From: Isosphaeraceae bacterium
GTDB taxonomy: Bacteria > Planctomycetota > Planctomycetia > Isosphaerales > Isosphaeraceae
Reading direction: 5' to 3'
Length of the DNA: 20,468 bases
NCBI GenBank assembly: GCA_041750675.1
Contig: JBGSYY010000408.1
Span: 1 to 20,468, forward strand
Shown: one piece after another, positions 3,502 through 16,870 of the stretch
Position numbering within the stretch: the first letter of the stretch is position 1
Layout of the letters: each line of letters opens with the position of its first letter
Translations under genes and position numbers: made by a program
Notes under the pieces: model-generated
The model's input: only the letters and a program-made list of their open reading frames with translations
Database searches by the model: none
What the model was told of the DNA's origin: nothing

Positions 3502-3573
3502 AGCACCGGGCGGGCCTCGAACCCGCGTCTCCGCGTTACGAAAGCGGAATCCTGCCCATTGGACGACCAGTGC
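3502..3573 (-). tRNA. tRNA-Thr (CGU)
   Basis: Reverse complement gcactgg tc gtcc aatgggca ggat tccgc(t) uuCGUaa (c)gcgga gac gcggg ttcgagg cccgc ccggtgc t. There is a U.C mismatch at positions 31-39. Confidence 0.7.
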
Positions 3574-3597
3574 AACCATCTCGGTGAATCTTCCGAA

Positions 3598-3670
3598 TGG
3601 GACCCGAGGGACTCGAACCCTCACCACCCTGGTTAAGAGCCAGGTATGCTGCCGCTAGCACCTGAGTCCC
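3598..3670 (-). tRNA. tRNA-Lys (CUU)
   Basis: Reverse complement gggactc ag gtgc tagcggca gcat a cctgg cuCUUaa ccagg gtggt gaggg ttcgagt ccctc gggtccc a. It has A73. Position 8 is A. Confidence 0.75.
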
Positions 3671-3700
3671 CTTTCATCCGATCTCTGTCCTTCATGAAAG

Positions 3701-3772
3701 TCGGCCCGGGAGGAGTCGAACCTCCGCCTGGCGGTTATCGGCCGCCGGTTCTGCCGTTAAACCACAGGCCGG
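3701..3772 (-). tRNA. tRNA-Ile (GAU)
   Basis: Reverse complement cggcctg tg gttt aacggcag aacc ggcgg ccGAUaa ccgcc aggc ggagg ttcgact cctcc cgggccg a. It has A73. Position 33 is C. Confidence 0.7.
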
Positions 3773-3808
3773 ACGATCAAACGTCGGCGCGCAGCGGGAG
3801 CGCGGAAG

Positions 3809-3880
3809 TGGGTCGGGTGGCGCTCGAATCCACGTCTGCGGCTTTTCAGGCCGCCGCTAGACCATCTCAGCTACCGACCC
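3809..3880 (-). tRNA. tRNA-Phe (GAA)
   Basis: Reverse complement gggtcgg ta gct gagatggtct agc g gcggc cuGAAaa gccgc agac gtgga ttcgagc gccac ccgaccc a. It has A73. There is an A.G mismatch at positions 53-61. Confidence 0.7.
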
Positions 3881-4243
3881 GCGCGTCATTTCGATCAGAC
3901 AGGTAACAAGCACGGCCGGACGTCCCTTGGTAAAGACGCCCGGCCGTCCCGGGTCTCATCGAGATGTCCCGTGGAGGCGATTAGGCGTCAGGGTTCATCG
4001 CAAAACCCGCCGCGCACGCTGGTCGTCGATCCGCCGTAAAACTGGCGATCCGCCGTATCTGCCGTGGCTGGGTCCAACTCGCTCTCAGCGACGCCCACAT
4101 CACAACCTCCGTCTCTTCCTTCAAACCTTTGTCGATCCCCGCGAATGCTTCCCGGCCCGAGGTCTCACAGCCGGCACGCCCATGCAGACGCCGCCGCCTC
4201 TCAAGATGTTCGCGCGTTTCCGTGAATTTTTTGAAGCGTCCTC

Positions 4244-7044: not shown

Positions 7045-8478
7045 ATGCCGTTCTCGATAACCGCAGGACTTATCCTCGCCTTCTGCCTTGCAGCCGACGG
7101 AGGCACTCCCTCCTTCCACGCCGGAGCTTCGGCCGTCGAGATCACACCACCCGTCGGCTGGCGTCTCGCCGGCAGTTTCCAGGACGAGCCGAGTTCCCGC
7201 GTCCGCGATCCTCTCCACGCTCGTGCGCTGGTTCTCCAGCAGGGCGAGCAACGCATGGCCCTTGTCATCTGCGACCTGACTGGCCTACCCCGCGAAGTCG
7301 CCCATCGCGCGCGACGTCTTGCCTCCCAACGCACGGGCATTCCCGCCGATCAAATCGTCATCGCCGCGACCCACACCCACGGCGCACCGCTCTTCTACGA
7401 TCACCGCCGCGAGCGATTCCACATACAAAACCTCAAGCAACATGGTCGTGATCCTGCCGAGCCGACACTCGACTACGCCGCCTTGCTCGTCGACCGCTGC
7501 GCCGAGGCCGTCGTCCTCGCCCAACGTACCGCAGCCCCCGCACGAATCCGATCCGGATCGATCGACGTCCCCGGCCTCGCCTTCAACCGGCGCTTCAAGA
7601 TGCGCGACGGCTCGGTGCGCTTCAACCCCGGCAAGCTCAACCCCGAGATCGTCGAGCCTGTGGGTCCCGTCGATCCCACCCTGCGCGTCGTTCGCTTCGA
7701 CCATCTCGCCGACGATCGGCCCATCGCCGCCCTCAACGTCTTCGCCATCCACGTCGCCGTCCACGGAGGTCCCGAAATTTCCGCGGATTTTCCTGCCGTG
7801 ATCGAAAAACGCCTCCAAGCCCGGTTCGGCCCCAACTTCGTCGCCCTCTTCGGCGAGGGAACCGCCGGCGACGTCAATCATATCGACGTCCAATCCGCCT
7901 CCCTCCAGCCCCCCGAAACCGAGCCAGCCCGGATCGGCAACGCCTTGGCAGAGGCCTGGCTGGCCCTGGAACCGAATCTCCACACCGCCGACAGCCCTTC
8001 GCTGGCCGTCCGCTCCGCTACGATCCAAGCCCCTCTCCGCCCCGCAAGCCCCGACGATGGTCGTCGTGCCCGGCACATCCTCGATCAGGAGAACCCGCCC
8101 GCCGAGTTCCTCGAGATTGTCGAGGCGCACCGAATTCTCGATGTCCTCGACGCCCGTCGCATCCATGGCGAAACCCTACCGATGGACGTCACGACGGTTC
8201 GGCTCGACGACTCCACGGCCCTCGTCTGTTTACCACACGAAATCTTCGTCGACTTGGGCCAGGCAATCGCCCGCGAGTCCCCCTTCCCGAACACGCTCGT
8301 CATCACCCTCTGCAACGGTGTCGACTTCTACGTCCCCACCGCCCATGCGTACGCGGAGGGTGGCTACGAGGTTGTCAACTCGCGAGTCGAGCGGGGTGCC
8401 GGCGAGGCACTTGTGGAAGCTGCCCTCACACAACTCCGCGCCCTGGCGGCGAGTCGTCCGTCAGGACCAGGCGGTTGA
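7045..8478 (+). CDS. secreted hydrolase, neutral/alkaline ceramidase-like N-terminal domain family (putative)
   Basis: The ORF runs to the stop at 8478. The ATG at 7045 gives an N-terminal signal-peptide-like segment, MPFSITAGLILAFCLAADGG. The extension upstream to 6733 overlaps the lon start on the opposite strand and is Pro/Arg-rich junk. Motifs VEITPPVGWRLAG and AATHTHGAP resemble the neutral-ceramidase-like hydrolase family. The assignment comes from motif memory only. Confidence 0.5.
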   Translation: MPFSITAGLILAFCLAADGGTPSFHAGASAVEITPPVGWRLAGSFQDEPSSRVRDPLHARALVLQQGEQRMALVICDLTGLPREVAHRARRLASQRTGIPADQIVIAATHTHGAPLFYDHRRERFHIQNLKQHGRDPAEPTLDYAALLVDRCAEAVVLAQRTAAPARIRSGSIDVPGLAFNRRFKMRDGSVRFNPGKLNPEIVEPVGPVDPTLRVVRFDHLADDRPIAALNVFAIHVAVHGGPEISADFPAVIEKRLQARFGPNFVALFGEGTAGDVNHIDVQSASLQPPETEPARIGNALAEAWLALEPNLHTADSPSLAVRSATIQAPLRPASPDDGRRARHILDQENPPAEFLEIVEAHRILDVLDARRIHGETLPMDVTTVRLDDSTALVCLPHEIFVDLGQAIARESPFPNTLVITLCNGVDFYVPTAHAYAEGGYEVVNSRVERGAGEALVEAALTQLRALAASRPSGPGG

Positions 8479-8544
8479 AAGTCACTCCCGGCTAGGCCAT
8501 GCATTGACGTTTCGATGGGTCGTCCATGATCGGCGTTCTCACCC

Positions 8545-8760
8545 GTCATCCCCGCGCAGAAATGCGTTGATCCAGCCGGCCTCGATCGATCATAGAGGCT
8601 CAGTTTGTCCGGTTCCGTTGGTGTCATCCCCGCGCAGGCGGTGATCCAGAGGTCAACGAACTGACCGACAAAGCCGTCCCGACTGAAGTCATCCCCGCGC
8701 AGGCGGGGATCCAGAGTGTTCGCCGCTCTCTCGCCGGATCACCGCCTGCGCGGGGATGAC
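8545..8760. repeat. Cluster of 29-bp palindromic repeats matching the type I-E CRISPR repeat consensus; degenerate mini-array or REP-like, with no cas genes in the window
   Basis: Two near-identical direct copies: 8623-8651 gtcatccccgcgcaggcggTgatccagag and 8688-8716 gtcatccccgcgcaggcggggatccagag, separated by a 36-bp unique spacer. One degenerate direct copy lies upstream at 8545-8575 (the first 15 nt and the gatccag tail are conserved). One inverted degenerate copy lies at 8736-8760. The repeat has an internal 8-bp stem, atccccgc/gcggggat, and fits the I-E-like consensus GTnnTCCCCGCnnnnGCGGGGATnnnnnn. Confidence 0.5.
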
Positions 8761-9069
8761 TCGTGGTAAGGCGGAGACGAACCGAACAACCTGAGGCTCA
8801 ATCGCCTTGGCTCGCTCCGAACGGCAGAGTCAACACCACGCCGCCACGACCGCGGTCAACCACCCACGCCACACACGCAGGAAAAATGATAAGGCGGCCA
8901 AACCACGCTCGCGACCCATCTTCAAGCTGGTCTAGCAACACCAGATCGGATTCGAGTATGATTCCAGTATGTAGAGCTTTGAATTCGATGGCACGCCTCC
9001 CGTGGCCATTCCGAGTGATCGCCTGTTCGTGATACCCGATTCTCCAAGGCGATCCACCCAGGATCTCCC

Positions 9070-9444
9070 ATGAACTTCGCCACACTGGTCCTCTTTGCCT
9101 TGCTCGCACCAGTGTCGTCGCTTCATACCCCTACGGATTTGTCGATCGCGCCGGCAACCCGGACCTCTCGGGTCGATTCATCCGCCAACAGCATTTCGAT
9201 CCCGTTGCAGGTCTCTGGCCGAGCCACCTCGAAAGACACGGACGCCCCCGAGCCCACAAGCCCCGTCGATCTCTGCGAGAGGCTGTCTCTGGACGAGCCG
9301 GGCGAGCCGGAGTCACAGTGCCTTGCCCCTCTGAGCCACGACCATTCGCGCGTTCTCCGATTCGCCATGCACCGGAGCACGGCGGGTCGCCGCGACGCTT
9401 GCACGCCTGCCCGCCGGCAGGGAATCCTCTGCTTACGCTGTTGA
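9070..9444 (+). CDS. hypothetical small secreted protein (weak call)
   Basis: 124-aa ORF opening with a signal-peptide-like hydrophobic segment, MNFATLVLFALLAPVSSLH. It lies in an otherwise gene-poor 1.3-kb interval. Codon bias is weaker than in the core genes and there is no clear RBS. Confidence 0.25.
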   Translation: MNFATLVLFALLAPVSSLHTPTDLSIAPATRTSRVDSSANSISIPLQVSGRATSKDTDAPEPTSPVDLCERLSLDEPGEPESQCLAPLSHDHSRVLRFAMHRSTAGRRDACTPARRQGILCLRC

Positions 9445-14020: not shown

Positions 14021-14467
14021 ATGTCTGGTTCAACCTGGCTTCAAATCGGTGCCGTCATGGGCTTTCTCTCGGTCGCACTGGGTGCGTTCGGCGCACATGG
14101 ACTGGACGCGCGGATCAAGGCCGAGCCGGCCGCCGCCACCGCCGCCGACCCAGGCGCTCGCCGTCCCGTCACCCCCGAACGCCGTCTCGAAGTCTTCGAA
14201 ACCGGCGCTCGTTACCACGCCATTCACGCCCTGGCTCTCGTAGCCTTGGGCCTGCTCGCGCTAGTCCACGCCGCACCAGGCCTCGCCGTCCAGGTCGCCG
14301 GCTGGTCCTTCCTGGTCGGAATCCTCTTGTTTTCCGGTAGCCTCTACGCCCTGGGCTTCTCCGGAATCGGCCTCCTGGGCGCGATCACCCCGTTCGGCGG
14401 AGTCGCTTTCCTGATCGGCTGGATCGCGATGGCCGTGGCCGCGGGAGGCGGCCGGAGCGTCGGCTGA
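14021..14467 (+). CDS. DUF423 (YgdD/TMEM256-like) small membrane protein
   Basis: 148 aa with four predicted TM segments. It has DUF423 motifs GAFGAHGL … FETGARYHAIHALAL … GSLYALGFSG. An SD-like GGGAG lies 11 nt upstream. A roughly 35-aa Ala/Pro-rich segment is inserted after the first helix. Confidence 0.8.
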   Translation: MSGSTWLQIGAVMGFLSVALGAFGAHGLDARIKAEPAAATAADPGARRPVTPERRLEVFETGARYHAIHALALVALGLLALVHAAPGLAVQVAGWSFLVGILLFSGSLYALGFSGIGLLGAITPFGGVAFLIGWIAMAVAAGGGRSVG

Positions 14468-14810: not shown

Positions 14811-14952
14811 TATTATACGGATCCCAGGTAACTGTCGCGGACCGATCGCACGATGCCCCCCGAAAGAGTCATTCCCGCGAACCCGGGGATCCAGCGCAAA
14901 CAGCTTGGCCGCTCACCTCGTCCCGCGAACAAATCTTGGGACCCGTATTATA
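14811..14952. mobile_element. MITE-like small element: imperfect 15-bp terminal inverted repeats (TIRs) enclosing a degenerate copy of the I-E-like 29-bp repeat
   Basis: tattatacggatccc (14811-14825) is mirrored by gggacccgtattata (14938-14952), matching 13 of 15 as reverse complement. These are unusually AT-rich ends for this genome. Inside lies gtcattcccgcgaacccggggatccagcg (14866-14894), a 24/29 match to the 8623/8688 repeat. There is also a direct repeat tcccgcgaac at 14871 and 14921. Confidence 0.4.
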
Positions 14953-15108: not shown

Positions 15109-15840
15109 TCAGCCCTTCTTTCTACGTTTGCCCTTGGGCTTGGCCGCCAATCTTGTCGGCGACGCTTCCACATGCGGAACTCTCGCCACGACCCCACGCA
15201 AGTCCATCAGAAAACCAAAAACCTGGATCTCCCAATCGCGGGAATGAGGAGGTCTCAGATAACGATCAGCATAAATTCGACCGACCAATTCCGCGAGCGG
15301 CTTCGTCCCGTTCGTGCCAACCATCGTCCGAAACGGATGGCAAGCCGTCCCACGAAGACCAGCCACCGAAGTTTCACCGGCCATGGGAATCCCTCGCGGA
15401 TCATCACGTCTGAGCTGCGCATAGTCCAGGATGTCCGCTCGCAACTCGTTGATGATCACCTCATGATGGGCCGAATCCTCAGACCGGTCCTGACCGTATT
15501 GAGCAAATCCGGATGCGTATCGGTGCGCGCCGCAATCAAAGTGATCAATGATGTAGATATACTTGATCTCATGAAGCGCCACGGCCAGCTCGAGGTGGTC
15601 GTAAAACGCGTTCCGACATGCCGCAAACGCGTCTGAATCGCTCAAACGCGGCCGCTTCAGGCTCACGGACGGACCCGCCGAGACGAACTGGTCATACCGG
15701 TTGGTCAGATTCTCCCCTTCCATGAACGCAACTACATTATCCAGCAGCCTCAAATCCATGCACGTGACCAGCAGCACATTTTTCGAGGCGAGCGGAAGCG
15801 CCCCGGTCGCCTGGTCCAGAATGTCGATTTGCTTGTTCAT
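15109..15840 (-). CDS. beta-class carbonic anhydrase-like protein (Rv1284-like clade) with C-terminal extension
   Basis: The start is set at the ATG at 15840 (MNKQIDILDQ…), with GAGGGA 6 nt upstream. The upstream part of the listed 300-aa ORF is an Arg-rich artefact. It has the beta-CA zinc-ligand motifs CxDxR (LLVTCMDLRLL) and HxxCG (IIDHFDCGA), which resemble the CMDAR / HTDCG motifs of Rv1284-type beta-CAs. A roughly 80-aa Lys-rich C-terminal tail follows. Confidence 0.55.
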   Translation of the reverse strand: MNKQIDILDQATGALPLASKNVLLVTCMDLRLLDNVVAFMEGENLTNRYDQFVSAGPSVSLKRPRLSDSDAFAACRNAFYDHLELAVALHEIKYIYIIDHFDCGAHRYASGFAQYGQDRSEDSAHHEVIINELRADILDYAQLRRDDPRGIPMAGETSVAGLRGTACHPFRTMVGTNGTKPLAELVGRIYADRYLRPPHSRDWEIQVFGFLMDLRGVVARVPHVEASPTRLAAKPKGKRRKKG

Positions 15841-15859
15841 TGTCCCTCGCCTTTCAGCT

Positions 15860-16870
15860 TCACGCCTTGCTCGCCTCAGAAAACGCCGAGTCGAACAAGC
15901 TCGCCGGCGCGTCGAAACCCATCGTTTTCTTGGTGAACGCACACGCCTCCGCCGCGCCGTACTCGCGCTCCATGCCAGGGTCTTCCCACTCAATCGAAAG
16001 CGGCCCGGCATAGCCGATGCTGTTCAACGCCCGGGCAATCCCGTCAAAATCCACCTGCCCACGCCCCGGCGAGCGGAAGTCCCACCCCCGACGTGGGTCG
16101 CCGAAGTTCAAATGACTGCCCAAAATGCCCGTCCGCCCGTTCAGCGTCCGTGCTGCGTCCTTCACGTGGACGTGATACATCCGATCCGGGAAATACCGGA
16201 TAAACTCCACCGGGTCCACCATCTGCCAGAGCAGGTGGCTGGGGTCGTAGTTGAAGCCGAATTCCTTGCGGCCGTCGAGCGCCTTGAGCGCCCGCTCCGC
16301 CGAATAAACGTCAAACGCGATCTCGGTCGGATGCACCTCCAGCCCAAACCGCACGCCTTCCGTCTTGAACACGTCCAGAATCGGATTCCAGCGGTCCGCC
16401 AAATCCTGATACCCCCGATCAATCATCGCGTCGGAAACCGGCGGAAACGAATACAGCAGGTGCCAGATCGAACTGCCCGTGAATCCATTGACAATCTGCA
16501 CTCCCAATTTCGCCGCCGCCCGCGCCGTGTCCATCATCTCCTGCGCGGCCCGCTTCTGAACGCCCTTCGGTTCGCCGTCGCCCCACACGTGATCGGGCAA
16601 GATCACCTTGTGCCGCTCGTCGATCAGATCGCACACCGCCTGCCCCGCCAGATGGTTCGAGATCGCCCAGCACTTCAGGCCATACTTCCCCAGCATCGCC
16701 TTGCGACCTTCGCAATACCCCGGCTCCTTCAGTGCCTGCTGCACATTGAAGTGATCGCCCCAGCACGGCAGCTCGATCCCGTCGTAGCCCCATTCGCTGG
16801 CCTTCTTGCAAAGCGTCTCTAACGTCATGTCGGCCCACTGGCCGGTAAAGAGCGTCACGGGGCGCGCCAC
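15860..16870 (-). CDS. sugar phosphate isomerase/epimerase (xylose isomerase-like TIM barrel) family protein
   Basis: TIM-barrel AP-endonuclease 2/xylose-isomerase-like profile: …[26 protein letters not shown]…[11 protein letters not shown]…GFTGSSIW…FGLEVHPTE…YHVHVKD…IEWED…. The start is set at the GTG at 16870 ([12 protein letters not shown]…), which has a strong GAAGGAGAG SD 8 nt upstream. The longer ORF up to 17257 overlaps the divergent HAD gene. Confidence 0.8.

Follow-up and report, generated by a model that had tools for sequence, protein, structure and literature searches.

Repeats resembling the type I-E CRISPR repeat downstream of a ceramidase-like gene: a probable small group of CGTC-1-type REPs

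Results

Genes and repeats at the locus

The stretch of DNA analysed in this work (the window) is a complete contig of 20,468 bp from a metagenome-assembled genome, and all statements on the presence or absence of genes cover these 20.5 kb only. Its GC content is about 63%, and the genes identified were ordinary chromosomal ones: genes for a Lon protease, a SulP transporter, a Mur ligase, a HAD hydrolase, an epimerase and a pyridine-nucleotide-disulphide oxidoreductase. Among the homologues of the ceramidase-like gene upstream of the repeats, the few with a named source were mostly from Planctomycetota, with one labelled Verrucomicrobia, which tentatively points to a host of the former phylum. 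Every 500-nt bin of the contig showed a negative GC skew irrespective of gene orientation, which fits a contig located entirely on one replichore strand.

Four repeats of a 29-base type were located at 8544-8761, three of them direct and one inverted, at the positions where an earlier note on this DNA had placed them (8545-8760). The cluster begins 67 nt past the stop codon of a ceramidase-like gene and sits between unidirectional ORFs. A fifth copy, absent from the earlier note, was found 6 kb from the cluster, between a DUF423 gene (14021-14467, + strand) and an ORF of the opposite orientation (15109-16011, - strand), and the contig holds two separate repeat loci (8544-8761 and 14867-14894). 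The features are as follows:

7045-8478, + strand: neutral/alkaline ceramidase-like gene (477 aa), upstream neighbour of the cluster
8544-8575 (repeat 8545-8575), + strand: R1', decayed copy, CGTCATCCCCGCGCAG-aaat-GCGTTGATCCAG
8622-8651 (29-mer 8623-8651), + strand: R2, 29-mer GTCATCCCCGCGCAGGCGGTGATCCAGAG, tag TGTC
8652-8687, + strand: unique 36-nt stretch between R2 and R3, described earlier as a spacer
8687-8716 (29-mer 8688-8716), + strand: R3, 29-mer GTCATCCCCGCGCAGGCGGGGATCCAGAG, read as AGTC-ATCCCCGC-GCAG-GCGGGGAT-CCAGAG
8687-8761, no strand assigned: R3/R4 head-to-head dimer (tags outside), can fold into one long hairpin
8732-8761 (29-mer 8732-8760), - strand: R4, inverted copy, AGTC tag, tail CCG in place of CCA
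9070-9444, + strand: small ORF (124 aa) with no Pfam family, downstream neighbour of the cluster
14867-14894, + strand: R5, fifth and solitary copy, AGTCATTCCCGCGAACCCGGGGATCCAG, T-variant type, AGTC tag, decayed stem

The unit is composed of a tag, (C/T/A)GTC, followed by ATCCCCGC-GCAG-GCGGGGAT and then CCAG. Three matches with up to 3 mismatches were detected in the window, vs. none in 100 dinucleotide-preserving shuffles. R3 is the only intact unit, with an 8-bp stem, a 4-nt loop and a CCA tail. R2 differs from it at one base, a G>T change that leaves the fourth stem pair as a C-T mismatch; the two good direct copies separated by a unique 36-bp stretch that had been reported earlier are R2, R3 and the stretch 8652-8687. 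R1' conserves a proper CGTC tag and CCAG tail, and its degenerate character was also recognised before; the change is better described as an insertion of 4 nt (AAAT) plus two G>T changes, which break the 3' arm, than as 9 nt replacing 5. R4, the inverted copy mentioned in the earlier note, is a 25/25 match to R2 and carries its G>T change of the 3' stem arm as well. R2 and R4 consequently form a perfect 25-bp inverted repeat (8623-8647 and 8736-8760), 88 nt apart and enclosing R3. Because both copies carry the same private, stem-breaking G>T, the sequences imply that R2 and R4 would be related by local copying (duplication or gene conversion) and not by independent insertion. Start-to-start spacing within the cluster was 78, 65 and 47 nt.

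None of the sizeable ORFs of the 20.5-kb contig contained a cas domain, in agreement with what had been stated before. A RAYT (Y1 transposase) domain was likewise absent from the window, and hmmsearch of all six-frame ORFs gave no GIY-YIG/Ssn-like gene. A cas or ssn gene might be located in another part of the genome.

Folding of the repeats as single-stranded DNA

The internal 8-bp hairpin that had been attributed to these repeats was clean in R3, but the stems of R1', R2 and R4 are broken. As single-stranded DNA, R3 folded into the 8-bp stem and 4-nt loop with -9.7 kcal/mol (z = -4.2), whereas the folds of R1', R2, R4 and R5, whose stems are broken, were no better than those of shuffled sequence. 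The R3/R4 dimer (8687-8761) formed a long hairpin of -37.4 kcal/mol (z = -10.3).

Comparison with type I-E CRISPR repeats

The similarity to type I-E repeats, which was the starting point of the earlier note, was considerable. The array located beside cas3 on a plasmid of Streptomyces sp. RLB1-9 (fetched locus L123, 956-1899; repeat GTCCTCCCCGCGCAGGCGGGGGTGAGCCG) was used as a control. R3 was identical to the control repeat at 22 of 29 positions, and at 21 of the first 22 bases, loop included; the likeness extends to the length (29 nt), the GTC start and the identical CCCCGC-GCAG-GCGGGG hairpin. The 3' end was different: the handle of R3 is ATCCAGAG vs. GTGAGCCG in the control, the last 8 nt (the crRNA 5' handle) are unlike, and 5 of the last 7 positions mismatch.

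Under the reading as a decayed or miniature orphan type I-E array, R1', R2 and R3 would be the repeats, 8576-8622 and 8652-8687 the spacers, and Cas6e would be encoded elsewhere. The 29-nt unit, the identity of R3 with a cas3-adjacent repeat, the uniqueness of both intervening stretches and an Rfam match to CRISPR-DR28 are in line with it, although the latter was on the opposite strand and sub-threshold (17.6 bits, half the gathering score of 35). No CRISPR-DR family of Rfam reached its threshold, and the other Rfam matches (miRNA hairpin models) were sub-threshold and meaningless too. The arrangement of the copies points in the other direction: in the control array at least 12 copies follow one another at a strict 61-nt period and in one orientation, whereas spacing in the window is irregular, the fourth copy is inverted, and TRF detected no array at the cluster. 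There is no AT-rich leader on the upstream side, where the ceramidase-like gene ends 67 nt before R1'. The AT-richer patch noticed earlier exists but is modest (GC of 0.60 at 8501-9000 vs. about 0.63-0.65 around), and "leader-like" does not suit it, as it lies on the wrong side, 3' of the last repeat.

The putative spacers did not favour an array either. The stretch 8652-8687, for which a search against phages and plasmids had been proposed, gave no convincing phage match (best E = 0.4); an exact match of its 24-nt core was absent from viral and metagenome contigs, it was not repeated in the other fetched loci, and the plasmid search, which spanned both intervening stretches, aligned repeat parts only. 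No protospacer-grade match was obtained for the intervening stretches in phages, viral contigs or metagenomes. The lack of a spacer match is common for genuine CRISPR spacers as well. The 29-mer is dispersed: more than 100 genomes carry it singly or in inverted pairs, and the window itself has the solitary R5. None of the multi-copy loci found elsewhere is a CRISPR array, as L039 and L095 proved to be plain tandem duplications, with the "spacers" duplicated too. Together with a contig lacking cas domains and a 3' handle unlike that of the control, these observations leave the orphan array extremely improbable, and this reading can be considered already largely refuted.

Comparison with the CGTC-1 REP family

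Tagged REPs were described by Di Nocera, De Gregorio and Rocco (2013; PMC3733652). According to these authors, a CGTC-1 REP has a CGTC tag (often TGTC, also CCTC). Its 8-bp stem, with A and T as positions one and two, encloses a loop of 4 nt, the tail is CCA, and head-to-head dimers predominate, their units being separated by about 20-100 bp. R3 (ATCCCCGC-GCAG-GCGGGGAT-CCA) conforms to this stem, loop and tail, and R2 and R4 do likewise with one stem mismatch. The tags were CGTC in R1', TGTC in R2 and AGTC in R3, R4 and R5. R3/R4 and R2/R4 both have their tags outside, as in CGTC-1 dimers. Intragenic CGTC-1 units encode VIPAKAGI or DSRFRGND (PMC3733652, Additional file 3), and R3 read in frame gives VIPAQAGIQ, matching the first of these peptides. 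The location was also typical of the family as described in PMC3733652: intergenic, near the 3' end of the upstream ORF and between unidirectional ORFs.

Azospirillum lipoferum 4B is a CGTC-1 host in which three plasmids carry 3 singles and 2 dimers, 1 single and 4 dimers, and 1 single and 1 dimer (PMC3733652). In a plasmid BLAST search with the cluster region, which aligned through the repeat parts only, matches were obtained at 7, 8 and 3 places on these A. lipoferum 4B plasmids, in agreement with the published counts of 7, 9 and 3 units (PMC3733652), and R3 was identical at 28 of 29 positions to a unit of a head-to-head dimer on plasmid p5 of this strain.

Three differences from the published family were observed. 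Three of the five tags in the window are AGTC; a small direct group together with a dimer is a rare arrangement according to PMC3733652; and Planctomycetes, the probable phylum of the host, are not listed in that article among the phyla bearing CGTC repeats. The same article reports that a dedicated transposase for CGTC REPs was not found.

GTAG REPs are likewise short, tagged, intergenic palindromes that often form inverted dimers folding into one long hairpin, and such dimers (REPINs) have been proposed as their mobile unit (work cited in PMC3733652). The tag in the window is of the CGTC type, not GTAG, and a RAYT-type REP was ruled out by this wrong tag and by the absence of a Y1 transposase in the window.

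Distribution of the repeat in other genomes

A scan for the 22-nt core ATCCCCGCGCAGGCGGKGATCC, with one genome per species, recovered at least 119 genome stretches, nearly all with one or two copies and with unrelated flanks. The hosts were Alpha-, Beta- and Gammaproteobacteria, Planctomycetota, Bacteroidota, Elusimicrobia, Saccharibacteria, Gemmatimonadota, Desulfobacterota and others, many of them metagenome bins, so that single taxon assignments carry some risk. The element had conserved edges in these stretches, with (C/T)GTC preceding the core and A(G/T) following it. The earlier note had named dozens of copies, scattered and in either orientation, as what would make the repeat a REP-like element, and in substance this is what was found, in more than 100 unrelated genomes and at 14867 in the window. 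From the three candidates listed in that note, the REP-like palindrome family was retained and the decayed CRISPR array and the miniature orphan array were discarded.

The family format (GTC, an 8-bp stem starting with A(T/C), a loop of 4-5 nt and a complementary arm in which 1 mismatch was tolerated) was then searched in the 812 kb of these stretches, giving 226 units vs. 5 in shuffled sequence. Among the units listed, the tag was CGTC in 161 and TGTC in 49 (210 combined), with AGTC as a minority form (7 units); the CCA tail was present in 200 of 226, and the loops were GCAG, GAAG, GAAA or GGAG. Neighbouring units among the matches listed were arranged head-to-head in 62 pairs, tail-to-tail in 7 and directly in 9. 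In the units lacking the search core (n = 110 among the matches listed), the third stem position co-varied with its partner (ATTCCCGC/GCGGGAAT in 34, ATGCCCGC/GCGGGCAT in 4 and ATACCCGC/GCGGGTAT in 2), which may reflect selection on the hairpin, though as weak evidence, because the search itself demanded pairing. The entire R3/R4 dimer aligned at 75-83% to dimers of many other genomes.

Viral contigs contained 10 singleton copies of the repeat. In metagenome contigs the G>T variant of R2 and R4 was present only as 13 unrelated singletons, and it was rejected as a propagating subfamily. The same result bears on the reading of R2 and R4 as the ends of a self-contained, 138-bp MITE- or REPIN-like element moving as one unit. 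The complementarity of R2 and R4 (25 of 25) at a distance of 88 nt, the private G>T common to both, the folding of the region as one long hairpin and the precedent of the inverted dimers of GTAG REPs would all suit such an element. Its interior would not: the 36-nt stretch had no match elsewhere, and for the 19 nt between R3 and R4, alignments to the fetched loci did not extend past the repeat units. Positions 8623 and 8760 are not flanked by a target-site duplication, the variant is found only as singletons in the 13 metagenome contigs, and the "terminal repeats" are simply family units. An element bounded by R2 and R4 is therefore very unlikely, and it was rejected as the primary reading for want of a second copy of the interior and of a target duplication.

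A side observation concerned the flanks of full units in other genomes. Extra 5' half-copies in the same orientation were located directly upstream of 11 of 112 full units, vs. 2 downstream. Loci with upstream copies were L004, L005, L010, L019, L026, L053, L068, L102, L115 and L116; L039, also among the 11, has a complete unit in a tandem array, while the other ten show one to three truncated copies stacked, each consisting of a few flank bases plus GTCATCCCCGC... This stacked pattern is not described in the parts of PMC3733652 and PMC11893778 used here. It could result from slippage at the hairpin, or mark sites at which DNA was cut and repaired immediately upstream of the tag.

Relationship to NTS, SRM and Ssn nucleases

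The CGTC-1-type element, named dRS3/NTS in Neisseria, was redefined by Chenal et al. (2025; PMC11893778) as a 28-nt NTS (CGTCATTCCCGCGMAVGCGGGAATCYRG) and a degenerate Ssn-related motif (SRM). SsnA, a GIY-YIG nuclease of 94 aa, binds the hairpin only as single-stranded DNA and only on one strand (top), cuts a few bases upstream of the tag and does not bind the RNA form; in Neisseria, cutting by Ssn lowers the integration of repeat-bearing transforming DNA, and ssn genes (GIY-YIG, cd10448) are often flanked by the repeats (PMC11893778).

R3 differs from the NTS at the tag base and at one compensatory stem pair (T-A to C-G), which places it outside the strict definition used in PMC11893778 (at most 1 mismatch). 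The SRM pattern, HGTCWYN(0-2)YYVSBRHN(0-5)WNVSBRGN(0-2)RNCYNB, was matched by R3 and R5, vs. a mean of 0.2 matches per window in 200 shuffles; R1', R2 and R4 were unmatched, the latter two only through their shared G>T.

Four of the fetched loci (L007, L021, L034 and L068) contain an Ssn-like GIY-YIG gene (PF01541) of about 95 aa that is flanked by the repeats. In L034, from a Phycisphaerae bin, the gene is surrounded at 3560-4153 by an exact NTS, a C-variant unit as in the window, a longer-stem variant and truncated copies. The window thus resembles the NTS/Ssn system in having a near-NTS unit (R3), two SRM-conforming copies (R3 and R5) and relatives that flank Ssn-like genes in other genomes. 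It differs in carrying no ssn gene and no strict NTS at R3, and cleavage of these repeats in this organism, like any effect on DNA uptake, would be hypothetical.

Folding of the cluster as RNA

Folded as RNA, the cluster region gave -123 kcal/mol over 251 nt (z = -5.5). This strong fold, the location of the cluster 67 nt past a stop codon on the coding strand, and the argument that many REPs are transcribed (PMC3733652) are consistent with hairpins maintained chiefly for a role in the RNA of the upstream gene, working as a 3' stabiliser or a transcription attenuator and independently of any nuclease. The failure of SsnA to bind the RNA form (PMC11893778) was counted against this reading, together with several features of the locus. 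The promoter/terminator scan gave nothing relevant and was negative for terminators on the + strand at the cluster, the hairpins are not followed by a T-tract, and the stems are broken in four of the five copies, a sign of decay and not of selection. The two closest homologues of the ceramidase-like gene (58-60% identity) lack such a cluster, although their downstream neighbours are unrelated, so that presence and absence are not comparable. A selected role as a terminator is argued against because the T-tract is absent and most copies have decayed, and maintenance mainly as an RNA element is on the whole unlikely, if less so than the two readings discussed above.

Discussion

The repeats in the 3' flank of the ceramidase-like gene are very probably a small group of CGTC-1-type REPs (= dRS3/NTS, SRM), a conclusion based on what other genomes show about the family and on the contig's second locus (14867-14894). 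The element is of an already known kind that mimics the type I-E CRISPR repeat, and the cluster very probably has no CRISPR function.

As members of the CGTC-1 family, R3 and R4 would represent the family-typical head-to-head dimer, R2 a further copy related to R4, and R1' a decayed one. The copies presumably arrived by whatever process spreads the family, with duplication or gene conversion acting locally in addition. All but R3 now appear to be decaying, and the cluster would be a passive group. If the host encodes Ssn, R3 alone is likely to be a good substrate. If the cluster is co-transcribed with the upstream gene, R3 and the long hairpin of R3/R4 or R2/R4 might constitute a stable RNA structure at the 3' end.

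The closeness of the hairpin to that of genuine type I-E repeats may simply reflect convergence on a stable GC hairpin, which is also compatible with the evidence. A common origin of I-E repeats and CGTC-1/NTS units, or the binding or cutting of unit-bearing transcripts by Cas6e in hosts with a type I-E system, is a highly improbable explanation; were the proposal on Cas6e true, small direct clusters such as R2-R3 could serve as decoys or as seeds of new arrays.

The findings have little significance for the locus itself, whose sole curiosity is the similarity of its hairpin to that of genuine type I-E repeats. For the family, they add Planctomycetota-like genomes to the hosts of SRM, including one Phycisphaerae locus with a repeat-flanked, Ssn-like gene. 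In length, hairpin and even local spacing, clusters of CGTC-1/NTS-type REPs can be mistaken for type I-E repeats, and for orphan "mini-arrays" with this core, dispersal and inverted dimers should be checked before a CRISPR is called.
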